Shown: one piece after another, positions 1 through 61,518 of the stretch
Position numbering within the stretch: position 1 is the stretch's first letter
Layout of the letters: every line of letters begins with the position of its first letter
IMG/VR virus record: IMGVR_UViG_3300019776_000693
Coordinates: 32,001 to 96,000 of that record
Direction: 5' to 3' (one strand)
DNA length: 64,000 nucleotides
DNA from: a virus
The notes under the pieces: model-generated
Database searches by the model: none
What the model was told of the DNA's origin: nothing
The model's input: only the letters and a program-made list of their open reading frames with translations
Translations under genes and position numbers: made by a program

Positions 1-3000
1 ACCTTTCCCCTACAAGTCCTGTATAAGCTGTCATCCATGAAGTAATAGGTACAATAGGATTAAAAGATAAACTTAAATTCTGTTTCCATCTGTGAATATA
101 CTTCAATATCTTAGTTGCGTCTACTTCTCCTAAAATAGGAATACTAACTCTCGCTCTTGTAACATCTTCCACTCCAAATATAGCATTATCTATATATGAT
201 TGTGCCATTTTAAATGTGTTTGTTGCTTCGGCGGATTTTCCTATTCCTGAATATCTACTACTATCTGATATAGCATCTCTTAAGGCTGAAACTTTATTAT
301 AATTTTTAACTCTGTTCTTTCTTAAAATCGCTTGTTGGCGCATTAACGTCATAGAATAAAACAAATCATCAGAAACATTTTCAGCGTTTTCTAAAGGATG
401 CACATAATATTTTGGAATTACTCTGATATTTGAATGATATAAAGTGTTACCTTGTTCATCTCTTTCTCCACTATCAATTTCCCCAACTCTGTAACTTTTA
501 ATACTTTCTAATTTTTCTTTTAAAACGTTTTTTACCCCACCTTTTAAAGAAGTTTCAATATTATTAATAATAGATTTTGGAACTTGTGGCATTAAATAAG
601 CATTGCCTTGTTCATGGTCAGCATCCTTTAACGACTGAGATTGATAATTTACAATTAAGTCATGTAATGATACTAATTTACTATCATTTTTTATTTTATC
701 CCATTTTTTATTATTAAAATTAAATTCTTTTCCAAATACTTTTGGTCTTTTAATTAAACTTGGTTGCGAAATACCTCCTTTAAAATTTACATCTCTTAAA
801 GGGTTTAACATATCATTAGATTCTGAATTATCCATATAATCATAAGAAACAGACATTCTAACATCTTCTGATTTCTCCAATTCTGCAACTAATTTTGATA
901 AAGGTTCATTAGTAGTTCTAACTTTTCTATAAAAATCTTGTAAATCTATTGGCGCATACGAAGAATAATAAGGAAGAAGTCTTGTTTGAGCATATTTTAA
1001 AATACCTTCTCTACTTTCTCCGTAAGGCTCTAATAAATTCTTCATCTTATCGTTTAAAGAATCCGTTTCTAATGCTCTTAAAAGTGAAGATACCTTTTCT
1101 CTATTAGCAGAAGTCATATTTTGTTGTGCAAAATCTAATTTTTCTTCTGTGGTTTGTAAATTTAAGTCTCCCATTCTTCCGAAAAATGCTTCATTTGCAT
1201 TTACCGAAGCCCTTCTTTCTTGTATTTCTCCTCCTTTACCTTTAATATACATAAATATTTGAGAAGATTTTACATCAATACTCTCAGATAATTGTCTAAT
1301 TTGTTGTCTAACTCCTTCGGGCATTAAATCAACATTAGTATTAACAGAGTTTTTAGAATCTTTATATTGTTTTAACAAATTGCGTCTTTGTTTTAACAAA
1401 TTTTTATATTCTTTTATTTTATCTCCAATAATTTCATCTTCTAAATAGTTTTCAAATATATCTACATATTCATTATCTTCAAAAAATTTATTAGAGAAAC
1501 CTAAAGATGTATTAAGGTTAAACCAAGAAATAATATCTTCTCTTGTCATTTCAGGGTCATTTTCCATATCTTGTAAATCTTTTCTCCAAGATTCTGAAAG
1601 TCCTTCTGTTGTTTGTCCTTGTTTTTCTTTAATTTGGTCTATGAAGTTTCTGTTGTATTTATTTAATTCAAATGCTATAATAGCTTCTTTTGTCGCTAAA
1701 GAATAATCTAATCCGATATACTCATTTTCAGATATTTTTACACTGTTTTCAAACGGTAAACTTTCTAAAATAATACCTGTATGAAGCTTACCAAATGAAT
1801 CGTAAATGTTTAAATGTTTTGCTCTTTCCGAAGCTATAATATCTAAATCAATTTTATTTTGTCTTGTTAATACAGGAATACCATTTTTAGATTTTTTCAT
1901 CTGTCTTCTTACTTGTCCTCTCATTTGAGATAAGTTTCTTAAAACAGTTTTTGTAGCTTCATTATATCCTGCTAATCTTTTTTCTTGTTCTTTTATATAT
2001 TTATCAGCTAGAAAAGTTTCAGAACCTGTATTTACAATTTTTTGAGCCTCCGTTTTTACTTTTTGAAATAATTCAAAGTTTGATATTAAGGGTAATTCTT
2101 TAAATTTTGCTAAAAATTGCTCGTCAGTAAGCCCTAAATATTCTTCATGTTCTTTTGCAGACTTATTCTCACTTTTTAAATCGTCTATAATAGCTTGTAA
2201 ATTATCTTTATATGCCTGTGCTTTAGCATACCTTGTAAATTCTTTAAACTCTGCGAAATCCCATTTAGAAGTTATATAACCGTCTTTTTGAACTAGCTTG
2301 GATAAATCCTGCTCTTTAAACCCTAATTTTCTTAATTCGTTTTGAAAATCTTTAGTAACATCTTGAAATTCTTCTGCTGTATCCTGGTATAAATCTCCAA
2401 TCACTGACCCTAGCATATTTAAAAGCGGGTCTTGTGCGTGAGTAATTTGTCCGAAATAACTGTATAATGAATTAGTATCTTTCTTTGCAGAAGTGAAAGC
2501 ATTTAACAATTCTTGTCTAAGTTCATTATCATCTTCTCTTCCGTCTCTTTGTAAAATAGATTCTACAATATCACTTAAAATTGTAGTTTCACTTTGATGT
2601 AAAGCACCAACAGCATCATTTATTTCTTCTTGTATTCCTTTAATATCAATAACTTCCGAAGAGTAATTTTTATTTTTTTCGATAGAAGTTTTAAGTAATG
2701 ATAACGCAGGATTAATTACATTTTTTAAATTTTGAAATACGATATTTTCCTCATTAGAAAGAATTGCACCTCTACTGTTTGCTGATTTAATAGCCTCATT
2801 AATATAGCTTGTTTGTCTTCTAGCTAAACTAATTAAATCTCTTACAGAAGTTTCTTCTAATGTTTTTTCTAAATATCCTTGTAATTTATGTAATTGTTCG
2901 GCAGAACCTCTTCCTAATTTTATTAAAACTTTTTCTTGTTCTTGTAAAGCTTTAATTAAATTGTGTTGAGGATTAGCTGACTTATTTAAACTGTATAATT

Positions 3001-4180
3001 TAAACTTCTTATTATCAAAATTACTTGTATTTAAATAATTACTTAAATTATTAGTAAGTAATGCATCCTCAACTTTAGTTGTTAAGTCTTCTAATTTTTG
3101 TCTGTAATTATCTTTCAATACAATTTTATCAAAGAAATTCAACATTGCGTTATACATTCTCTGTAAAATATTTTGAGGCGTAGTTTCAGAAGTAAATTTA
3201 TTCTGTAACGCTTTTGCTAACTCTTTACCTAAAACTTCTTTTCTTACTAAATATTCGATTGCAGATTCACTCATAGAAGGGTTTTCCTTACTATAAACTT
3301 CTCTGTAATTTTCTGAATGTTCCCCGTAAGATTGAGTTTTATGAATATCTCTAACTAAATCATTAATTTCTTGAACATCCCATCCTTCGACAATAAAGTG
3401 GGCTGTTTCTTCTGTTAAAGCTTCTACACTGATTTTACCTTCTCTAAATGCTACAATTCTATTAGAAATATCTGCTAAGGCATTAGCTGAAACATCTACA
3501 TTATATCTTTTACTATAATTTTCAATATTGGTTATTGATACTCCTATTTCTTTTAAGAAATCTAATAATCTGTTTTTTAATACTTTTTCCGATAATTTAC
3601 CTTGTTTTGTACCATATACTCTACTAAAAGTTTTTCTTATAGAATCAGCTACAAAATTATTTTTTTTTACTTGGTCATCTGTAAATTCAATCCTACCGTC
3701 TTTATGAACTATTGTGTTAGACCTTAAATCTTTAGTTACATTTTCATTTATAATTTGTCTAATTAATGAATTTCCTTCCGCTTTTAAAAATGATTTTCCT
3801 TGGTCAATAACTCTTTCATCAGAAATAATATTTTCTTTTATAAGATAGTTTGTAAGACCTTCTTTAGTATTTTTGTTCGTATTAGCTGAAATAGTTAGTA
3901 AAGAAATATCCCCCGATTTAACTTCTATATTACCACCATCACTATCTAATAAAGCATCTTTATATGTGGTAAATTCATTTCCTTTTTCAGAAATAAAAGT
4001 TAAAGGTGTTTCTCCTTTATAACCGTCTTTATATACGTTTTGGTAAGCTGTTAAAGATTGTTCAAGAGTATTTATTTGTGGAATTTTAGCGATTTGATTA
4101 AATAAAGTAGATTCTTCTCCACTTGGAGTATTTACTCTGATTATTTGATTATCGTTATTGTATGTTATTTGACAAGCCAT
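1..4180 (-). CDS. giant internal virion (cargo/ejection) protein, N-terminal >1393 aa, runs off the left edge; contains an EExxH zincin-like motif
   Basis: Not in the ORF track because it has no stop in the window. ATG at 4178-4180 overlaps the TAA of the upstream ORF (TAATG). Begins MACQITYNNDNQIIRVNTPSGEESTLF; ALTEETAHFIVE near 3390-3420; frame checked as open at both ends and at an internal point; position matches the crAss-like giant cargo genes. Confidence 0.8.
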   Translation of the reverse strand, partial: MACQITYNNDNQIIRVNTPSGEESTLFNQIAKIPQINTLEQSLTAYQNVYKDGYKGETPLTFISEKGNEFTTYKDALLDSDGGNIEVKSGDISLLTISANTNKNTKEGLTNYLIKENIISDERVIDQGKSFLKAEGNSLIRQIINENVTKDLRSNTIVHKDGRIEFTDDQVKKNNFVADSIRKTFSRVYGTKQGKLSEKVLKNRLLDFLKEIGVSITNIENYSKRYNVDVSANALADISNRIVAFREGKISVEALTEETAHFIVEGWDVQEINDLVRDIHKTQSYGEHSENYREVYSKENPSMSESAIEYLVRKEVLGKELAKALQNKFTSETTPQNILQRMYNAMLNFFDKIVLKDNYRQKLEDLTTKVEDALLTNNLSNYLNTSNFDNKKFKLYSLNKSANPQHNLIKALQEQEKVLIKLGRGSAEQLHKLQGYLEKTLEETSVRDLISLARRQTSYINEAIKSANSRGAILSNEENIVFQNLKNVINPALSLLKTSIEKNKNYSSEVIDIKGIQEEINDAVGALHQSETTILSDIVESILQRDGREDDNELRQELLNAFTSAKKDTNSLYSYFGQITHAQDPLLNMLGSVIGDLYQDTAEEFQDVTKDFQNELRKLGFKEQDLSKLVQKDGYITSKWDFAEFKEFTRYAKAQAYKDNLQAIIDDLKSENKSAKEHEEYLGLTDEQFLAKFKELPLISNFELFQKVKTEAQKIVNTGSETFLADKYIKEQEKRLAGYNEATKTVLRNLSQMRGQVRRQMKKSKNGIPVLTRQNKIDLDIIASERAKHLNIYDSFGKLHTGIILESLPFENSVKISENEYIGLDYSLATKEAIIAFELNKYNRNFIDQIKEKQGQTTEGLSESWRKDLQDMENDPEMTREDIISWFNLNTSLGFSNKFFEDNEYVDIFENYLEDEIIGDKIKEYKNLLKQRRNLLKQYKDSKNSVNTNVDLMPEGVRQQIRQLSESIDVKSSQIFMYIKGKGGEIQERRASVNANEAFFGRMGDLNLQTTEEKLDFAQQNMTSANREKVSSLLRALETDSLNDKMKNLLEPYGESREGILKYAQTRLLPYYSSYAPIDLQDFYRKVRTTNEPLSKLVAELEKSEDVRMSVSYDYMDNSESNDMLNPLRDVNFKGGISQPSLIKRPKVFGKEFNFNNKKWDKIKNDSKLVSLHDLIVNYQSQSLKDADHEQGNAYLMPQVPKSIINNIETSLKGGVKNVLKEKLESIKSYRVGEIDSGERDEQGNTLYHSNIRVIPKYYVHPLENAENVSDDLFYSMTLMRQQAILRKNRVKNYNKVSALRDAISDSSRYSGIGKSAEATNTFKMAQSYIDNAIFGVEDVTRARVSIPILGEVDATKILKYIHRWKQNLSLSFNPIVPITSWMTAYTGLVGER

Positions 4181-5862
4181 TATTGACAGTTAAAATATTT
4201 TGATTCTGCTTCTTTTAAGTTTTCTTTTTTTATTTCTGTATATGTATCAGGAAATGTAGATTCATTTAAATATCTATTAATATTTATGTCAGAAAATGTT
4301 TTTTCTTCTGCTTCTACTTCTTTGTAAAAAGAAATGTTTCCTTCTTGATAAATCATTTCATAATTTGCTTGATTAGTGCTTAAAAATTGATTTGTATTGT
4401 TTTTAGTTAATAAAACACCGTCTTCTAATATTGTGTAATTTGTTGTTATTTTAGGTGCTACTATTTCTCCTTTAAATATTTTACTTCTTAGCTCATCTTC
4501 TGTGTTAAAACTTTCTTCTTGAACAATTTCTTCTTTGTATAAATCTGCTTTAGCTTTTGTTATAGGGTCATTACTTACAAGTTGAATTCCTTTTGAAGTT
4601 GCTTTTAAAAATGGATTATTTATAGCTTCTGATAAATTTACAAAAGAAGGTTTTTTATTTGATTTAGTTTTTATAGGTGCATTTAAGAAATTTTTCCAAA
4701 TATACATAGCTTCTAAAATATCAGATTCTGTTACTTCATCTTCTACTTGCATTTCGGAAACTTTAGCTTGTACTTGCTCTTTTGTTTTTAACTCTTTTTG
4801 TTGTTTAAAAAAATAATTATATAAATCTTCTATGTTTTCAGGAACTACTTTTGTGTAAACATCGCCCTCTTTTCTAATTAAATTGTGGTCTCTGAATAAT
4901 TCATATTCTGTTAATTCTGTATCTAGTTTGATATCATTGCCTAAATCTTGGGGTTCTTCTGCCGAGATATTAAAAAAATTATCATAAATTTCTGAAAAAT
5001 TATCATTAGGGTTTTTTATATATGCTTCTAAACTTCCTATGAAAGATTTAAATTGATTTAAAGGTAATACTTTATCTTCTATTCCTCTTAAATCAATTCC
5101 ATATTTTACCACTTCTGTTTCTATTCCTTTTGCAACATCCTTTAATTCTGTGTTGTTTCTTTGCGCAACATTTTCAGTAACTGCAAACACAGATGAAAAT
5201 AACATATCTAATTTTTGTGAAACAGGTTCAGAATTAATAGGATACGTTTTTCTTAAAGTTTGTAAAGTATCAGATTTTTTAGGTTGTATTTCTCCATTAA
5301 TTATCTCATTTACACCTTCTTCTTTAACTTCAATATAAACTTTTTGTTTTCCAAAAATTGTAAGTTCATCTGAATATTTTAATTCCTCTCCATTATAATC
5401 TACATTAAATTCAGAATTATTAACTTTAAATATATTATCTTTTATAGAATTTTGTAATTCTTTATTAGATAATATAGCTGTTATTTCATAATCATTATAT
5501 CCCGCTTTTTTAAGTTTTGTTTTATTAAAAATAACTACATTGTTATCATCCAAAAAAGCTTGTTGTAGTTGAGTAAAAAGTTCATAATTATTACTTACTC
5601 CGCTTTCTATAACAGATTGTTTTTGTTCTGTTGTTAATTGCTCTTGTGTAGATGTAGCGTAAGTTATTACATCTTTTATAGTTGGTGCTGTATAAATTGT
5701 TTTAAAATTATCTGTTTCTGTTAAAGCATATAAATCTAACGCTTTTTCTGCACCAAATAAATTTTTTAATTCATCAAATAAAACACTTCTTTCTCCATTA
5801 GGTAAATTAATATATTCTATTTCATTATTTTGATTGTAATGTATATCACAAGCTATTCCCAT
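4180..5862 (-). CDS. 560-aa putative internal virion protein; N-terminus paralogous to the downstream giant protein
   Basis: ORF track; MGIACDIHYNQNNEIEYINLPNGERSVLF resembles MACQITYNNDNQIIRVNTPSGEESTLF; translationally coupled to the next gene. Confidence 0.7.
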   Translation of the reverse strand: MGIACDIHYNQNNEIEYINLPNGERSVLFDELKNLFGAEKALDLYALTETDNFKTIYTAPTIKDVITYATSTQEQLTTEQKQSVIESGVSNNYELFTQLQQAFLDDNNVVIFNKTKLKKAGYNDYEITAILSNKELQNSIKDNIFKVNNSEFNVDYNGEELKYSDELTIFGKQKVYIEVKEEGVNEIINGEIQPKKSDTLQTLRKTYPINSEPVSQKLDMLFSSVFAVTENVAQRNNTELKDVAKGIETEVVKYGIDLRGIEDKVLPLNQFKSFIGSLEAYIKNPNDNFSEIYDNFFNISAEEPQDLGNDIKLDTELTEYELFRDHNLIRKEGDVYTKVVPENIEDLYNYFFKQQKELKTKEQVQAKVSEMQVEDEVTESDILEAMYIWKNFLNAPIKTKSNKKPSFVNLSEAINNPFLKATSKGIQLVSNDPITKAKADLYKEEIVQEESFNTEDELRSKIFKGEIVAPKITTNYTILEDGVLLTKNNTNQFLSTNQANYEMIYQEGNISFYKEVEAEEKTFSDININRYLNESTFPDTYTEIKKENLKEAESKYFNCQ

Positions 5863-5900
5863 TGTCTATTTAATTTTAAAATTTGTTTAATGTGGTAATA

Positions 5901-6125
5901 CTACTTTATTGGTTTAAATTTACTAATATGTTCTTTAAAGTTTGTATCTGCTTGTTCTTTAGATATAGGATTTCCATTATCATCTAAGTCTATCCAAGTG
6001 TTTTTAGGCAAAGACATAATTTTATTAAGATAATCTTCATCTTCAGGTTTTAGAATTGCACCACTTTCCTTTGCTATCTTTAAAATATTAGCTCTTATTC
6101 CTCCGTTCATTATTTGTGTACTCAT
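5901..6125 (-). CDS. hypothetical protein (74 aa)
   Basis: ORF track; same strand as neighbours, downstream of the promoter at 6421. Confidence 0.55.
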   Translation of the reverse strand: MSTQIMNGGIRANILKIAKESGAILKPEDEDYLNKIMSLPKNTWIDLDDNGNPISKEQADTNFKEHISKFKPIK

Positions 6126-31906: not shown

Positions 31907-32437
31907 TTAAGCTTTTTTTAACCTTTCCGCGTAATTAAATTTTTTATACTGTGCACCATTATAATAGTATGCAAAAGTATCCCAATCTCCTTTCTGTAAA
32001 GCTTTGTACATTTTAGGAGTTAATTTAATAAAAGCTACCATCATTTTTAGTTGATTCTGTTCAGATTCTTTCATATAATTCCAAAAATCACCAACTGAAT
32101 TAAATCCTAATTTTTTCCAATGAAAGCCCATTATTTGAGGTAAACCTATTGAAGTACTTTCCATTGCCGATATTGGGTTTACACTGTATGCACTATTAAA
32201 TGCTTTCCATTCTCCTTCTTGTTTTTCAACTTTATTAGTTGCCCAAACTCCTGCAAAATTAGACCAACGTGGAAAAAGTCTTTTAAACCAATGCGGTTCA
32301 AATTGTATTAATATTTTACCTGTTGTTTTATCAAAACCATATCCCCCACTCTCTACTGCAATTACTTTTCTTAAATTATCATAAGGAATGTTATTATCTA
32401 GAGCTATTTTTTGAATATCTGTCTTAGTTAATTTCAT
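31907..32437 (-). CDS. endolysin, N-acetylmuramidase (DUF3380-like)
   Basis: VIAVESGGYGF, ILIQFEPHWF, STSIGLPQIMGFHW and FAYYYNG motifs. Confidence 0.9.
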   Translation of the reverse strand: MKLTKTDIQKIALDNNIPYDNLRKVIAVESGGYGFDKTTGKILIQFEPHWFKRLFPRWSNFAGVWATNKVEKQEGEWKAFNSAYSVNPISAMESTSIGLPQIMGFHWKKLGFNSVGDFWNYMKESEQNQLKMMVAFIKLTPKMYKALQKGDWDTFAYYYNGAQYKKFNYAERLKKA

Positions 32438-51496: not shown

Positions 51497-51528
51497 CAAA
51501 AATACAAAATTAAAAATTATTAAACAAA
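51497..51528 (-). promoter_or_regulatory. leftward Bacteroidota-type promoter (TTTG-N20-TATTTTTG)
   Basis: CAAAAATA 51497-51504 and CAAA 51525-51528; at the strand switch. Confidence 0.75.
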
Positions 51529-51627
51529 CTAGTTAAACTTTATTTATCATTTTTATATAAATTTATTTTTAACTAATTTGTATAATTGAAATATTTTTAT
51601 TAAATTGCGCCCTAATAAATACAAAAA

Positions 51628-51741
51628 CCTGCTCACCGTCCCTATAAATAGTCTAAGGAACTAAGAGGTAGAATCACTTTTCGGTGAAATAATGGTAGGA
51701 CATTTAAAAATCTAAGTGTAGGTAAGTTATAGGTGACTTAC
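51628..51741 (+). ncRNA. candidate structured RNA upstream of tRNA-Gln
   Basis: Nested stems CCTGC/GTAGG and TCACCG/CGGTGA, plus hairpin GTAAGTTA-TAGG-TGACTTAC in an otherwise AT-rich intergenic region. Confidence 0.4.
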
Positions 51742-51745
51742 AAAT

Positions 51746-51817
51746 TGATTTATGGTGTAACGGCTAACACGACTGCTTTTGGCGCAGTAATTTGAGGTTC
51801 GAATCCTTATAAATCAA
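51746..51817 (+). tRNA. trnQ: tRNA-Gln (anticodon TTG), no encoded CCA
   Basis: Acceptor TGATTTA/TAAATCA; D stem GTGT/ACAC; anticodon stem ACTGC/GCAGT with loop TTTTGGC; T arm TGAGG-TTCGAAT-CCTTA. Confidence 0.92.
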
Positions 51818-51832
51818 CAAAATTAAAAAATA

Positions 51833-51864
51833 TTTGCATATTATAATTTTTATCCTTATATTTG
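51833..51864 (+). promoter_or_regulatory. Bacteroidota-type promoter (TTTG-N20-TATATTTG)
   Basis: TTTG 51833-51836 and TATATTTG 51857-51864. Confidence 0.8.
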
Positions 51865-51884
51865 CATTTTAAAACATTACATAT

Positions 51885-51997
51885 CGGAGTTTATTTAGAG
51901 TAGTGCCTAAATAATCGAAAACAATAAAGACGAAAGTCCTATTAAACTTAAAACAACCGTGCACTACATTTGGTTGTTTTGTTTTTTAGGGCTTTTG
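51885..51997 (+). promoter_or_regulatory. 5' leader with two hairpins whose loops are complementary (kissing loop)
   Basis: Loop GTAGTGC (51900-51906) is the exact reverse complement of loop GCACTAC (51961-51967). Confidence 0.7.
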
Positions 51998-52010
51998 CGC
52001 ATTTATATAC

Positions 52011-53515: not shown

Positions 53516-54061
53516 ATGATAGATTATAAATTAATAAACGATTTAATATTATATTACGAAGATATAGGATTTAAAAGAATAGAAACACCTTGGTTAGTTA
53601 CAGAAGCAGTTGATTCAATAACCAGACCAAAAGAAATTGAACCATTTATTGTTCAAGCCAAGAAGAAAAACTTAATTGCATCAGGAGAACAAGGATTCTT
53701 ATATTTATATTTAAAAGAATATTTACCAAAAGGTACTTTCCAAACAGTTACACCTTGTTTTAGAAATGATAGTTTTGATTTCACACATTCAAAATATTTT
53801 ATTAAAAATGAATTAATAAAAACAGATAAAGTAGACAAATATTCTTTAGAACAAATGGTCACAAATGCAAAATATTTTTTTGACTCTCTTTTTAATACTG
53901 AAACAAATATTTTAGAAACAAATGATGGGTTTGATATTATGTTAGAAAATATAGAATTAGGAAGTTATGGTATAAGAAATTGTGAATTTTTAGATTGGAT
54001 TTATGGAACAGCATGTGCCGAACCAAGAACAAGTAAATTAATAAAATTATATAATAAATAA
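53516..54061 (+). CDS. minimal class II aminoacyl-tRNA-synthetase-like catalytic domain
   Basis: Motif 1 YYEDIGFKRIETPWL; motif 2 TPCFRND...HSKYFIKNEL; motif 3-like IELGSYG...GTACAEPR; only 181 aa. Confidence 0.7.
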   Translation: MIDYKLINDLILYYEDIGFKRIETPWLVTEAVDSITRPKEIEPFIVQAKKKNLIASGEQGFLYLYLKEYLPKGTFQTVTPCFRNDSFDFTHSKYFIKNELIKTDKVDKYSLEQMVTNAKYFFDSLFNTETNILETNDGFDIMLENIELGSYGIRNCEFLDWIYGTACAEPRTSKLIKLYNK

Positions 54062-54303
54062 TGGGATATCATATAAAAGAAATTGAAAAAGGAATTTTAG
54101 GAGAATTTTCAAAAATAAAAGAGGAATATCAAGAATTAGAAGATGCTTTTGAACAAAGAGATAAAATATTACAATTATGTGAGTTAAGTGATTTAATAGG
54201 AGCTATAGAGTTTTATTGTCAAGAAAAATTTAAAATAACATTAGAAGATTTAAAAAGTTTTTCAGATAAGACAAAATCGGCGTTTAAAGAAGGTAAAAGG
54301 TGA
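54061..54303 (+). CDS. MazG-like all-alpha NTP pyrophosphohydrolase
   Basis: KIKEEYQEL...ELSDLIGA (EExxE...ExxD) pattern; coupled to the aaRS-like gene. Confidence 0.65.
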   Translation: MGYHIKEIEKGILGEFSKIKEEYQELEDAFEQRDKILQLCELSDLIGAIEFYCQEKFKITLEDLKSFSDKTKSAFKEGKR

Positions 54304-56351: not shown

Positions 56352-56735
56352 ATGAAGCGTTATAGTAAAAATGGATTAGAAAAAAGAAAAGAAGAACGAA
56401 AATGTCTTCCTGAATTTTTTTCGCGACACGTTGAAATAATAAAGAAGAATAAATTGTGGTGCGAGAATTGTGGAGAAATATTAAAAGGAGATGTTTCAGA
56501 AATAGCTCATCGCTTAGCTAAATCATATTTCAAATCTATACAATGTGATGATGAAAATGTAGTGTACTTAGGAGGAAGATTTAGTAAATGTCAGTGTCAT
56601 TCTTTGTATGATGGTACGAACGAACAATTACAATCTTTAAATATTTTCGCGGAAGAAAGAATAAAAATAGAAAAATTATTAGAAAGAGTAACAGAAAACA
56701 TAAATTATAAAATATACGATAGATGGCTTCTTTAG
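56352..56735 (+). CDS. HNH/NinG-like Zn-binding nuclease
   Basis: CENCG...EIAHRL...NVVYL...CQCHSLYD. Confidence 0.6.
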   Translation: MKRYSKNGLEKRKEERKCLPEFFSRHVEIIKKNKLWCENCGEILKGDVSEIAHRLAKSYFKSIQCDDENVVYLGGRFSKCQCHSLYDGTNEQLQSLNIFAEERIKIEKLLERVTENINYKIYDRWLL

Positions 56736-57697
56736 AAGAAACACTTAAAAAATTAAATAAAGGAAAGAGGGAACAAGATAATTATTCCTTATTAAAAGAT
56801 AAGGAGGTTGTGCGTACAAGAACTTCAACAGGAAGTCCATACTTAGACTATCTATCTGGAGGTTTTATGAACGGTGGTTATAACTGCATTGTGGCTAAAG
56901 GTGGTAGTGGAAAAAGTTCAATATCTCTATTAGCTTGCAAAGATGTTATTTCTAGAGGAAAGGTTGCTGTTTATTTCGATGGAGAAGGCACTTTAGATGA
57001 TTCCTATTTCAAAAGAATGGGTGTGAATAAAGATAATTTTATACATATTCGACATAGAAATTTAGAAAGGATGTTAGATGAAGCGGAAGCTTTTGCACAA
57101 ACGGATGAAGTAGGAATTATTGTATTTGATTCTATTCCAATTTTTAAATCAACAGTTGTTCAAGAAAAATCTGCAAGTGATTATACTATAGGTATAGAAG
57201 CCCAAAGATGGGGTACTCGTATGACATTGATTGAAGGGTATGCTGTTGCAAGAGATATATGTTTATTAGGTCTGCAACATTATAAAAAAGACCCAGGAGT
57301 TATGATGGGGGATAATCGCACACTTTCACGAGGCGAGTGGCAGGGTACTATGATGAATACGTTTATTGATTTGACTAAGAAAAAAATGATTTTTGATGAA
57401 GATAAAAATTTAATAGGTCACACTTTAGACGTGAGAATAAAAAAATCTAAGGGAAGTGCTTACGACCCGACAGAAACATTTACAGTTAATTTTTACAACG
57501 AAGGTGGATTCAATCAAATTGATGAATATGCAAGAGTTTTTATAGAAACAGAAATTGCAAAACAAGGTGGAGCGTGGGTTAAGTTTCCAAATGTAAACGC
57601 AGAGGAAATAAGTGTAAATGGTGTTGATAAGTTTATTGAGCACTTAAAAAACAATCCTGAAGATTTTGAATTTTTAAAACAGCAATTAAATGATTAG
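56723..57697 (+). CDS. recA: RecA/UvsX-like recombinase
   Basis: STGSPYLDYLSGG; Walker A AKGGSGKS; YFDGEG; Walker B IIVFDSI; KQGGAW. Confidence 0.85.
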   Translation: MASLEETLKKLNKGKREQDNYSLLKDKEVVRTRTSTGSPYLDYLSGGFMNGGYNCIVAKGGSGKSSISLLACKDVISRGKVAVYFDGEGTLDDSYFKRMGVNKDNFIHIRHRNLERMLDEAEAFAQTDEVGIIVFDSIPIFKSTVVQEKSASDYTIGIEAQRWGTRMTLIEGYAVARDICLLGLQHYKKDPGVMMGDNRTLSRGEWQGTMMNTFIDLTKKKMIFDEDKNLIGHTLDVRIKKSKGSAYDPTETFTVNFYNEGGFNQIDEYARVFIETEIAKQGGAWVKFPNVNAEEISVNGVDKFIEHLKNNPEDFEFLKQQLND

Positions 57698-58499: not shown

Positions 58500-58874
58500 A
58501 TGACACACTTAATTTACATATACTTAATAATAAACAGTTTTATTTCAGGTAATTATTTGTTTGATACCTTTAATGGTGATAAAGGATTTAAGAAGTTTGG
58601 AATTTTTTCTGTTTTATTATTTTTTGGTGCGCCGTGGATTTTATTATACTTAATAAGTGAATTACCTATATTTAGGTGGATAAAAAATGAATTTTGGTTT
58701 ATATATCATTTTTATATTACAGACTATTGGAAAAACGTGGTGGAAAATAATGAAGAAAGAACTAAAGAAGGAGTATTAGAATTTTTAAACAATTCTACAA
58801 AAAATGCTTCAAAACAAGTTAAAAGACACACAAGATTAATAATTAAGAAATATGCCACCAAAGAAAACAAATAA
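58500..58874 (+). CDS. membrane protein (2 TM)
   Basis: ORF track; two hydrophobic helices. Confidence 0.55.
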   Translation: MTHLIYIYLIINSFISGNYLFDTFNGDKGFKKFGIFSVLLFFGAPWILLYLISELPIFRWIKNEFWFIYHFYITDYWKNVVENNEERTKEGVLEFLNNSTKNASKQVKRHTRLIIKKYATKENK

Positions 58875-59370
58875 AGAGATTATAAATTGGATTTTTGAAG
58901 GTAAACAGATACAAGAAATAGATGATTTTCCAAAACAATTTCAAAAATACGAAGGTTTTGTATATTTAATATCTTTTTTAAACGGAGACTACTATATTGG
59001 GCAAAAACAAATAAGACTTAGTAATAAAAGAAAAATCGGCAAAAAAGAATTAGAAACATACCCTGACAAAAGGAGATTAAACAGAAGAAAAGTAAAAACA
59101 GGCAAAAGTAAAGGAGAATGGGTTTATTACGAAGAAATATATAAAGAAGATTGGCAAGAGTACATAAGCAGTTCAGATATTGTTAAAGAAAGAATAAAAT
59201 ATGGAGAAGATTATAAAAAAGAAATAATATTATTTGTAAAAAAAGTAGGGTTATTAAATTTCTTTGAAACAAAACAAATAATGTGTTCAAATTGCATGGA
59301 AGATGAAAAATGTTTAAATGACCATGTTGGTAATTACTACAAAAGAAATATTTTAAATAAAAATTGTTAG
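58852..59370 (+). mobile_element. GIY-YIG (Seg-like) endonuclease
   Basis: GFVYLISFLNGDYYIGQKQI...WQEYISSS...ETKQI...CLNDHV. Confidence 0.75.
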
Positions 59371-59375
59371 GATAA

Positions 59376-60074
59376 ATGAGAGAATTAAAAAATGAAATCC
59401 ATTATAAAATATCTTTAGACGAAGACCAGAAAAAAGTTAAAGCGGATATATATGAAAAAGAACTTATTGTTATTACAGGACAAGCGGGTAGTGGTAAAAG
59501 CCTTGTAGTAGCTCAAACAGTATTAGATTTAATTTTTAAAGGGCATATAGACAAAGTCTATGTAACTAGAGCTGCTGTTGAGGTTGGTAAATCACTCGGA
59601 TTTCTTCCAGGCGAGTTATCCTCCAAATTTGACCCATATATTGAAGCTTTTAGAGATAATCTTTACGCCTGTTATGATAAGAATAAAGTGGACAAACACT
59701 TAACACATTTAAGTGGAGGAGAAGAAAATAAAGACAGAAACGCTAATAAAACAACAATTGCAAAAATAGAAGGTATCCCTACTCAATATATTAGAGGAAA
59801 AACAATTGGAAATAGAGAAATATTAGTCATTGAAGAAGCTCAAAATTTATCAGAACATGAAATGGAAGCCTTGTTGACAAGATTAGGAAAAGGTGGAAGA
59901 ATAATAATCAATGGGGATAACAATCAGCGAGATATTAAAGAATCATATACAGGATTAAGTTTTGCCATTGATATTGCAAAAGCTTTTGATGAAGTTGGGT
60001 ATCATAAATTAAAATCAAACCATCGTTCAGATTTAGTTAAGAAAATTTTAGATTTTAAATATAATAAACAATAA
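59376..60074 (+). CDS. phoH: PhoH-like ATPase
   Basis: ITGQAGSGKS, LGFLPG, YIRGKT, VIEEAQN, LLTRLG and GDNNQRD. Confidence 0.92.
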   Translation: MRELKNEIHYKISLDEDQKKVKADIYEKELIVITGQAGSGKSLVVAQTVLDLIFKGHIDKVYVTRAAVEVGKSLGFLPGELSSKFDPYIEAFRDNLYACYDKNKVDKHLTHLSGGEENKDRNANKTTIAKIEGIPTQYIRGKTIGNREILVIEEAQNLSEHEMEALLTRLGKGGRIIINGDNNQRDIKESYTGLSFAIDIAKAFDEVGYHKLKSNHRSDLVKKILDFKYNKQ

Positions 60075-60726: not shown

Positions 60727-61518
60727 ATGAACCCTAATAATCAAAAAACACTATTAGCTTTTAAAAAAGAATATACAAATAAGATATTTAAAACAAATAA
60801 AGGATTAAATCTAAAAATATTAGATTATAGAGGTGTTAACGATATTACTGTAATTTTTGAGAATGGATATACTACAATCACTAACTTAGATTGTATTAGA
60901 AAAGGTACTATAAAAAACCCTCTATATCCCTCTGTTTGTAATGTAGGTTATTTCGGTGTAGGTATTTTTACAGCTACTATATTAGGAAAAAACACTCCTG
61001 AATATGAAGCATGGAGTGGGATGATAAAAAGGTGTTATGGCGAGAAAAAATTAGAAAAATATACCTCTTATATTGGATGTTCTGTGGATGAGAAATGGCA
61101 TAATTTTCAGAATTTCGCTAAGTGGCACGAAGAAAATTATAATCCTGAGATAATGAAAGATTGGCAATTAGACAAAGATATTTTAGTGAAAAATAACAAG
61201 ATATATTCACCAGAAACTTGTTGTTTTGTTCCACGAGACATCAATAATGTCATCAAGACTAATAAGAATAAAAGAGGAGAATTACCTGTTGGTGTGTCAA
61301 GAAGAACTATTAATAAAAAAGAAATGTTTAGGGTTTCAATAGCAACGGCAGTTAAAAAAAGTAATTTAGGATACTTTAACACTCCAGAAGAAGCTTTTCA
61401 AGTGTACAAAACAGCAAAAGAAAATTATATTAAAGAAGTTGCAGACAAATGGTGTGGATTGATTTCAAAACGAGTATATCAAGCATTAATGGATTATAAA
61501 ATAGAAATAACAGATTAA
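60727..61518 (+). mobile_element. HNH-type homing endonuclease with a C-terminal AP2-like domain
   Basis: YEAWSGMIKRCY, WHNFQNFAKW, LDKDIL...YSPETCCFVP..IN and LGYFNTPEEAF. Confidence 0.8.

Follow-up and report, generated by a model that had tools for sequence, protein, structure and literature searches.

A stripped seryl-tRNA synthetase-like core and its HisE/MazG-like partner: a widespread gene pair of large phages and ultra-small symbionts

We analyzed a 64,000-nucleotide stretch of viral DNA (hereafter, the window), corresponding to positions 32,001 to 96,000 of IMG/VR record IMGVR_UViG_3300019776_000693 and part of a complete phage genome of 130,620 bp with direct terminal repeats and 27.9% G+C; no close isolate relatives of this phage were found. 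At the center of the analysis is a pair of plus-strand genes that encode a 181-aa protein (the core) and an 80-aa protein (the partner), both with an ATG start (Table 1). The two open reading frames (ORFs) are joined by the pentanucleotide TAATG at 54059–54063, where stop and start codons overlap by one base, and both lie within a dense string of co-directional genes that starts after a strand switch near 51.5–52 kb. No terminator-like site was found on the plus strand between 52.3 and 55.4 kb, and a sigma-70 promoter scan of the locus gave matches at chance level for AT-rich DNA. The original prediction had described a protein with class II aminoacyl-tRNA synthetase (aaRS) motifs 1–3 but no anticodon-binding domain, joined through TAATG to a MazG-like protein, and this layout was confirmed.

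The core is predicted to be a compact class II catalytic domain. An alignment of 129 diverse relatives, which is the basis of all conservation figures given for the core, was used for AlphaFold2 prediction and yielded a model with a predicted local distance difference test score (pLDDT) of 97.3 and a predicted template-modeling score (pTM) of 0.91. A Foldseek search of the PDB with this model returned class II cores only, with PylRS, seryl-tRNA synthetase (SerRS), and PheRS-alpha at TMq 0.71–0.75 and at least 500 class II matches at E ≤ 1e-3. A structural scan of 48,161 PDB representatives with VIA-align, which is independent of Foldseek, ranked SerRS cores first (Z 18–19.6; root-mean-square deviation 2.2–2.5 Å over 179–180 of the 181 residues). 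Other class II structures in the same scan were HisRS/HisZ (Z 15–18), PylRS (17.4), ThrRS (16.5), an amino acid:carrier-protein ligase (aa:CP ligase), Bll0957 (3mey; 16.5), and the methanogen-type SerRS 2cim (14.8). The model has the antiparallel beta-sheet core of the class, motifs 1–3, and the arginines of motifs 2 and 3 (R83 and R171), each conserved in at least 90% of the relatives; these results support the class II fold first proposed. A likeness to EpmA or AsnA (class IIb cores of the LysRS/AspRS type) or to aa:CP ligases is not favored: EpmA/GenX (3a5y; Z 13.7) and AsnA (11as and 3p8t; Z 13.2–13.9) lie beyond SerRS distance, neither EpmA/PoxA nor AsnA was matched in a PDB search with the core family profile, and the structural scan, the profile search, and hhalign point instead to a bacterial-type SerRS. 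No anticodon-binding or other extra domain was found in the protein, all 181 residues of which belong to the core. The N-terminal coiled-coil arm that serves the long variable arm of tRNA-Ser is also absent, with residues 1–181 mapping to SerRS from approximately 170–230 onward.

In single-sequence searches, the core matched phrog_4806 (E 1.6e-37), which carries the label "histidyl tRNA synthetase"; this label is a mis-annotation. Pfam returned borderline class II matches only (tRNA-synt_2d, 19.8 bits, E 6e-4; tRNA-synt_2, 19 bits, E 8e-4), the pheS and PylS models matched far below their cut-offs, the curated cut-offs of the SerRS family models (Pfam tRNA-synt_2b and Seryl_tRNA_N, NCBIfam serS) were not reached, and a PDB search with the single sequence produced no match. 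When the core family profile was compared with the PDB, SerRS came first (2dq3, E 7e-8), and S56-G-E58 aligned with the IPTAEV/IATSEQ segments of solved SerRSs. Alignment to E. coli SerRS with hhalign (90% probability) placed S56-G-E58 on T237-A-E239, TPCFR83 on TPCFRSE, and F95-x-K97-x-E99 on FDKVE, with a 7-residue deletion in the motif 2 loop; motif 2 of the core thus matches the TPCFRSE...HQFDKVE of SerRS. For the C-terminal half, no profile or pairwise alignment to E. coli SerRS was obtained, and correspondence was drawn by pattern comparison only: E147..S150 with E355..S358 (E-x-x-S), and G164-T165..R171 with G390-S391-G-L-A-V-G-R397 (common pattern G-[ST]-x-x-A-x-x-R). The hairpin between these two elements is approximately 18 residues shorter than in E. 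coli SerRS.

Conservation in the family is concentrated at the same positions. S56, E58, P80, F95, K97, and E99 are invariant, and at least 90% of the relatives agree at P25, W26, R83, H91, E147, G149, S150, T165, A168, E169, P170, and R171. In the AlphaFold2 model, motif 1 shows a helix-strand topology, and motif 3, for which the family pattern is G164-T165-x-x-A-E-P-R171, spans a strand (159–169) followed by a helix (171–180). The full set of serine/ATP-site elements of SerRS (TxE loop, FRxE...FxKxE, E..S, and G[ST]..A..R) is present in the core. In SerRS structures the matching positions contact the amino group and hydroxyl of serine as well as Mg2+ and ATP, roles that the core residues presumably share. 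Judged from sequence and model, the 181-aa protein is apparently a stripped but catalytically complete SerRS core of the bacterial type.

The 80-aa partner matched phrog_6408 (E 1.7e-29). The Pfam PRA-PH (HisE) model matched the protein from the window at E 0.005 (17.7 bits, under the gathering cut-off of 21.3) and 37 of 58 partner relatives at E ≤ 0.01, with a best E value of 7.9e-6; profile matches in the PDB were weak (MazG-like 1vmg, E 0.27; HisIE 7bgm, E 1.5). Among the same 58 relatives, from which the conservation of the partner was assessed, Y3, H4, I8, G11, S17, K18, E21, E22, E25, Q32, E41, D44, G47, A48, T71, F75, and R80 are invariant, whereas D28 and E50 are at least 90% conserved. 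The resulting EExxE(xxD)...ExxD cluster is of the type seen in all-alpha nucleoside triphosphate (NTP) pyrophosphohydrolases. The PRA-PH matches and this acid cluster support the MazG-like identity first proposed, in the form of a MazG/HisE-like protein. In the model of a natural fusion of the two proteins, the partner domain consists of an extended N-terminal segment and three helices. An acyl carrier protein (ACP)-like reading of the partner was tried and rejected. Position 43, within the sequence ELSDL, is serine, threonine, cysteine, or alanine across the 58 relatives and the fusions, so the partner is not a carrier protein; the acidic residues are conserved, and the family matched is PRA-PH.

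The core and the partner are encoded together almost wherever they occur. The core family comprises 1,452 representative clusters (50% identity) at E ≤ 1e-3, a number that, like the PHROG E values, lies far outside chance expectation. With tblastn, the core was located in 241 and the partner in 266 deposited phage genomes, among them Phapecoctavirus, Acinetobacter, Caulobacter phiCbK-like, Brevundimonas, Pectobacterium, Cronobacter, and Microcystis phages and huge uncultured phages. The clusters derive from hundreds of phage isolates, such as those of E. coli, Klebsiella, Acinetobacter, and Caulobacter, and from genomes of candidate phyla radiation (CPR) bacteria and DPANN archaea. The two genes adjoin in annotated isolate phages, mostly in the order partner then core, and both orders were seen among 80 IMG/VR loci. 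In 79 of these 80 the genes lie on the same strand within 2 kb of each other, in 52 they are directly adjacent, and in three they are fused, so the gene pair is conserved, as the original prediction had anticipated. Fusions of 260–274 aa make up nine of 150 representative clusters, with further cases in CPR and DPANN, and at least 12 natural fusions are independent. These fusions and the near-perfect co-occurrence show that core and partner function jointly. The pair is real and ancient. No third gene family is constant beside it, none being found in more than 14 of the 80 loci.

Several variants of this arrangement were noted. Longer forms of the core (P0252, P0264, P0381, P0380, N-terminally extended) contain no Pfam domain and no conserved tail. 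Phage CcrColossus gp133 (NC_019406.1; L002:3743-4597), a 284-aa protein labeled "histidyl tRNA synthetase," was considered as a core-partner fusion and rejected: its N-terminal extra region of approximately 85 aa, annotated in GenBank as an RNA polymerase alpha C-terminal domain-like domain, is unrelated to the HisE-like partner, and a separate upstream gene of 87 aa is probably the partner. In another viral locus (L009), a 79-aa partner gene is present in two tandem copies (5386-5625 and 5849-6088) downstream of the core gene.

The module is not confined to phages. When prokaryotes were scanned with a single genome for each species, 19 cellular loci emerged, mostly in CPR bacteria (Saccharibacteria, Woesebacteria, and Magasanikbacteria) with one in a Woesearchaeote; some of the contigs are 0.9–1 Mb long, and the flanks are ordinary chromosomal genes (Mur ligase, VanY, and PMT_2). 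Directly next to the module, genes for NrdR, NUDIX, a uridine-kinase-family protein, or a kinase-like AAA_28 protein are frequent. In Woesebacteria and Woesearchaeota, the fused gene overlaps a small radical-SAM gene with CNAxCTFC and GGGEPxLHP motifs; the two radical-SAM proteins are homologous (E 1e-13), and MoaA, viperin, and NrdG models match them only weakly. This small radical-SAM family is restricted to DPANN and CPR (54 clusters), with proteins of approximately 225–255 aa. A close family member adjoins the fusion in 7 of 7 loci examined, mostly with overlapping ORFs indicative of translational coupling (Table 1), whereas two distant homologues have no adjoining fusion. The DPANN order is fusion then radical-SAM gene; in CPR a divergent nrdR is followed by the radical-SAM gene and then the fusion, and nrdR is divergently upstream in three of the seven loci. 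ThyA, dihydrofolate reductase, PRK/Udk, CYTH, AAA_28, and TK genes also occur near the fusion and radical-SAM loci. The association of the core-partner fusion with radical-SAM and nrdR genes in CPR/DPANN is a new finding. The DPANN/CPR radical-SAM gene was absent from the 80 viral loci. As a lead only, a language-model atlas suggests that small radical-SAM proteins of a similar kind are common in tailed phages.

One of these loci (L111) has a canonical 441-aa SerRS gene 1.5 kb from the fusion, and because the two coexist we conclude that the mini core does not replace SerRS. The cellular contexts and the coexisting canonical SerRS also make a phage-only counter-defense device unlikely. Counter-defense or takeover of translation had been suggested for the phage pair, but the same module sits in CPR/DPANN chromosomes near nucleotide-salvage genes, and no constant third partner accompanies it in phages. 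The earlier interpretation is thus retained for the fold, the arginines, the type of partner, and the conservation of the pair, but the phage-specific role is not supported.

Two further observations concern the cellular loci. The 11-mer TATATAGATAA is common to the nrdR-radical-SAM intergenic regions of L090 (4092-4183) and L106 (1909-1919); three variants with at most one mismatch occur in L090, confined to that intergenic stretch, and the 11-mer is not present in L116, the third nrdR locus. It may be a candidate operator but is too weak to claim as one. No match to the NrdR-box consensus was found in the Woesebacteria locus. In L109, a 329-aa adenylosuccinate-synthetase-family gene (1404-2393, minus strand), of a size that recalls phage PurZ, is convergent to and abuts a core-partner fusion.

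In phages, the surroundings of the pair vary. It lies between frd (dihydrofolate reductase) and td (thymidylate synthase) in Morganella phage MP1 and just upstream of the ribonucleotide reductase (nrd) genes in Phapecoctavirus. Recurrent but inconstant neighbors are thymidylate synthase, NMNAT-Nudix, NAMPT, DNA ligase, GIY-YIG endonuclease, RNA ligase, and deoxynucleoside monophosphate phosphatase. Two themes, nucleotides and tRNA, run through these contexts, and neither is universal. In the window, the rightward gene string that includes the pair is headed by a tRNA-Gln gene (51746-51818, plus strand), GC and AT skew both flip sign at approximately 51500-52000, marking the divergent transcription switch, and five further genes were noted downstream (Table 1). 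The second and last tRNA of the phage is a tRNA-Met at genome position 121512-121587.

Table 1. Positions of the pair, its conserved elements, downstream genes, and the radical-SAM genes of the coupled cellular loci. Positions refer to the window unless preceded by a locus number.
Feature	Position	Strand	Basis or remark
Mini class II catalytic core of SerRS type (181 aa)	53516..54061	+	phrog_4806, AlphaFold2 model, SerRS matches
Motif 1, G18-F-K-R-I-E-T-P25-W-L-V	53567..53599	+	Family pattern G18-F-x-x-I-E-T-P25-W; class II dimer-interface motif
S56-G-E58, equivalent of SerRS T-x-E loop	53681..53689	+	Alignment to SerRSs, where the loop contacts the amino acid's alpha-amino group
Motif 2, TPCFR83...H91...F95-I-K97-N-E99	53750..53812	+	Loop ~7 residues shorter than SerRS
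E147-L-G-S150, pattern as SerRS E355-I-S-S358	53954..53965	+	Presumed Mg/ATP-site strand (by analogy with SerRS structures)
Motif 3, G164-T165-A-C-A-E-P-R171	54005..54028	+	Strand-to-helix junction
HisE/MazG-type all-alpha NTP-pyrophosphohydrolase-like partner, 80 aa	54061..54303	+	phrog_6408, PRA-PH, acid cluster
First acid cluster, E21-E22-x-x-E25-x-x-D28	54121..54144	+	E21, E22, E25 invariant; D28 ≥90%
Second acid cluster, E41-x-x-D44...E50	54181..54210	+	E41, D44 invariant; E50 ≥90%
DUF4326 protein, 110 aa	55475-55807	+	Pfam E 5.7e-15, phrog_464; weaker DUF488-N3a match
UvsX/RecA-like recombinase	56723-57697	+	Downstream of pair
phrog_447 protein labeled "NAD synthetase"	58852-59370	+	E 1.8e-17; downstream of pair
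PhoH-like ATPase	59376-60074	+	Downstream of pair
HNH endonuclease	60727-61518	+	Downstream of pair
Radical-SAM gene, coupled locus	L090:4201-4971
Radical-SAM gene, coupled locus	L103:5794-6477
Radical-SAM gene, coupled locus	L106:~1990-2659
Radical-SAM gene, coupled locus	L111:4001-4702
Radical-SAM gene, coupled locus	L112:4001-4720
Radical-SAM gene, coupled locus	L113:4001-4687
Radical-SAM gene, coupled locus	L116:~3929-4609

We tentatively propose that the pair is a tRNA-independent, two-subunit enzyme of nucleotide metabolism that combines serine adenylation with NTP pyrophosphohydrolysis. The two genes would encode two subunits of one enzyme, which in some lineages is a single polypeptide. 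Subunit A, the minimal SerRS-type core, would probably dimerize through motif 1 and form an aminoacyl-adenylate from ATP and L-serine (or a small amino acid closely resembling it), both of which it would bind; having lost the arm and part of the motif 2 loop, it would most likely pass the amino acid, once activated, to a small acceptor other than tRNA. The partner, as subunit B, would cleave the alpha-beta bond of an NTP, possibly a modified one, to give a nucleoside monophosphate (NMP) and pyrophosphate, and might thereby supply, consume, or tidy the nucleotide that takes part in the reaction. Such a module would belong to nucleotide-pool or salvage metabolism in both large phages and ultra-small symbionts (CPR and DPANN), and in the latter the small MoaA/viperin/NrdG-like radical-SAM enzyme may add a third step.

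The components of this proposal differ in strength. That the core and the partner form a physical complex is very probable, and active adenylation by the core is probable; the conserved ATP-, Mg-, and amino acid-site residues favor such a reaction, with serine or a close analogue as the amino acid, and the chances for serine itself are evenly balanced. Ordinary charging of tRNA-Ser is disfavored because the arm is lost and the motif 2 loop is clipped, and a non-tRNA acceptor is somewhat favored. The nucleotide-salvage and deoxynucleotide-related neighbors, the NTP-type partner, and the NTP-type radical-SAM neighbor tilt the balance toward a tRNA-independent role in nucleotide metabolism; a nucleotide-type substrate is put forward only tentatively.

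Several observations weigh against this proposal. In the phage studied here, the ThyA and ribonucleotide reductase genes are tens of kilobases from the pair, and there is no radical-SAM gene. The partner is assigned to the HisE/MazG type from weak profile matches and motif conservation, and the model of one fusion (pLDDT 92) has a pTM of only 0.69, so that domain packing, and with it the position of one active site relative to the other, is modeled with low confidence. None of the characterized truncated aaRS paralogues listed in a review has a free nucleotide as its acceptor (PMC9437257). The remaining contrary evidence comes from tRNA genes, which lie on the same strand within 6 kb of the pair in 24 of 60 viral loci, sometimes flanking it on both sides, and form arrays in which the pair is embedded in four of them (L017, L063, L066, and L079). 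Here, tRNA-Gln, one of just two tRNAs in the whole phage, is 1.7 kb upstream of the pair, and the recurrence of RNA ligase among the neighbors adds to the same theme.

These contexts are also the support for the main rival explanation, namely a tRNA-directed enzyme in which the core acts on the 3' CCA end, either by arm-independent serylation or by protection or repair of the acceptor end, and the partner removes a nucleotide or pyrophosphate adduct or supplies an NMP, as part of a tRNA-maintenance kit of large phages. The intact catalytic site would allow such a role, since in SerRS the same site also holds A76. We consider it unlikely. The tRNA-binding arm is missing, and the shortened motif 2 loop is the element that contacts the acceptor stem in SerRS. 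No tRNA was found within 3.5–4 kb of the pair in five isolate phages, no tRNA isotype is constant near the pair in the 60 viral loci, and in CPR/DPANN the context is nucleotide salvage and the radical-SAM gene rather than tRNA genes. Both proteins are acidic (median pI ~5.2), a weak point because SerRS is likewise acidic. As a separate observation, two viral contigs have, close to the pair, a tRNA whose anticodon is CUA (L048:11013-11087 and L049:214-289), named tRNA-Pyl by ARAGORN. Such tRNAs might act as amber suppressors, in which case the phages concerned would recode a stop codon.

An improbable alternative is a signal-nucleotide module, in which the core would make ApnA/ApnN or an alarmone from the adenylate and the MazG-type partner would degrade that product or other alarmones. 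Several class II synthetases do make Ap4A from aminoacyl-adenylate, the ATP site is intact, and the partner has the acid cluster of NTP pyrophosphohydrolases. A maker and a breaker in one polypeptide, however, would run a futile cycle, the strict conservation of the amino acid-binding residues S56, E58, E99, and T165 exceeds what ApnA synthesis needs, and no sensor or effector gene co-occurs in the 80 IMG/VR loci.

It is more doubtful still that the core is a non-catalytic serine/ATP sensor that switches the NTP pyrophosphohydrolase, as HisZ does HisG. HisZ structures match the core well (Z 16.7–17.9), HisE, which the partner resembles, belongs to the same pathway, and an aaRS paralogue is already known to serve as a regulatory subunit (PMC9437257), but HisZ has lost adenylation activity (PMC9437257), whereas the core retains both the E147/S150 strand and the arginines of motifs 2 and 3 and is SerRS-like rather than HisRS-like in sequence. 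Least probable is an EpmA- or aa:CP ligase-like enzyme that aminoacylates a protein, possibly the helical ~80-aa partner next to it: truncated class II paralogues do perform such reactions, EpmA on elongation factor P (EF-P) and aa:CP ligases on carriers (PMC9437257), and Bll0957 is a good structural match, but S43 is the partner's sole serine at an ACP-like position and varies, in contrast to six acidic residues of the metal site that show little or no variation, carrier-protein families are not what the partner matches, EpmA and AsnA are structurally more distant than SerRS, and neither a phosphopantetheine transferase nor a target protein gene co-occurs in the 80 IMG/VR loci.

Comparison with known systems sets the pair apart from each of them. 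SerRS of the bacterial/eukaryal type (class IIa; 7u2a, 2dq0, 2dq3, and 1ser) shares the fold across all 181 core residues together with the motifs described above, but is a protein of ~430 aa with the coiled-coil tRNA arm and longer motif 2 loop and pre-motif 3 hairpin, whereas the core has an obligate HisE/MazG-like partner and coexists with a canonical SerRS. The SerRS paralogues listed in Table 1 of PMC9437257 are SerRS2, SLIMP, and the aa:CP ligases only. The last of these, Bll0957 and Atu2573, are SerRS homologues according to Mocibob et al. (2010), as cited in PMC9437257; they are zinc-dependent enzymes of ~300 aa that charge a carrier protein on its phosphopantetheine arm (PMC9437257). 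They resemble the core in being truncated, SerRS-like class II proteins that lack a tRNA-binding domain and have a small partner gene alongside, but the partner in the present pair is of HisE/MazG-like type and lacks a conserved carrier serine, and the core is nearest to bacterial-type SerRS. The aa:CP ligases derive from methanogen-type SerRS.

On the side of the partner, HisE and MazG proteins are likewise helical, of similar size, and carry the EExxE...ExxD cluster; the partner differs in its length of 80 aa, in the additional invariant residues Y3, H4, S17, K18, Q32, T71, F75, and R80, and in its constant coupling or fusion to a synthetase core. The HisZ-HisG system also joins a class IIa paralogue to an enzyme of nucleotide chemistry, but HisZ is HisRS-derived, ~380 aa long, and catalytically dead (PMC9437257), whereas the core is SerRS-derived with its catalytic residues kept, and no HisG was found among the neighbors of the pair in the 80 IMG/VR loci. 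Two further systems are functional analogies that imply no homology. GluQRS/YadB, a truncated class I aaRS, places an amino acid on a modified nucleoside and acts on tRNA (PMC9437257). The other is the MazZ-PurZ pair, in which PurZ is not aaRS-like. In the synthesis of the phage Z base, MazZ, an enzyme of MazG type, provides a ligase with an NMP.

These data indicate that the pair is a truncated aaRS paralogue with a previously undescribed obligate partner. We found no study of it in the literature, and a survey of jumbo phages treats MazG-like enzymes in general terms only and does not discuss the pair (PMC7824862). It is widespread (~1,450 clusters) and mislabeled in databases, and the tractable phages that carry it offer direct experimental access. 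Few natural class II cores whose active site appears intact are as small as this one (181 aa), which therefore bears on ideas about minimal or ancestral synthetases. Truncated synthetase paralogues have repeatedly exposed new chemistry, as with the lysylation of EF-P, the loading of carrier proteins, and the glutamylation of queuosine; the obligate and sometimes fused HisE/MazG-like partner, together with the coupled radical-SAM enzyme in cells, points to a metabolite or modification not yet described. Quite unlikely as it stands, but far-reaching, is the idea that the core and the partner, with the radical-SAM enzyme in CPR/DPANN and possibly under NrdR control, form an undescribed tRNA-independent pathway that attaches activated serine to a nucleotide or nucleotide-derived metabolite, or processes such a compound. 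If true, nucleotide or cofactor metabolism would gain a new branch, common to large phages, giant-virus-like elements, and ultra-small symbionts.

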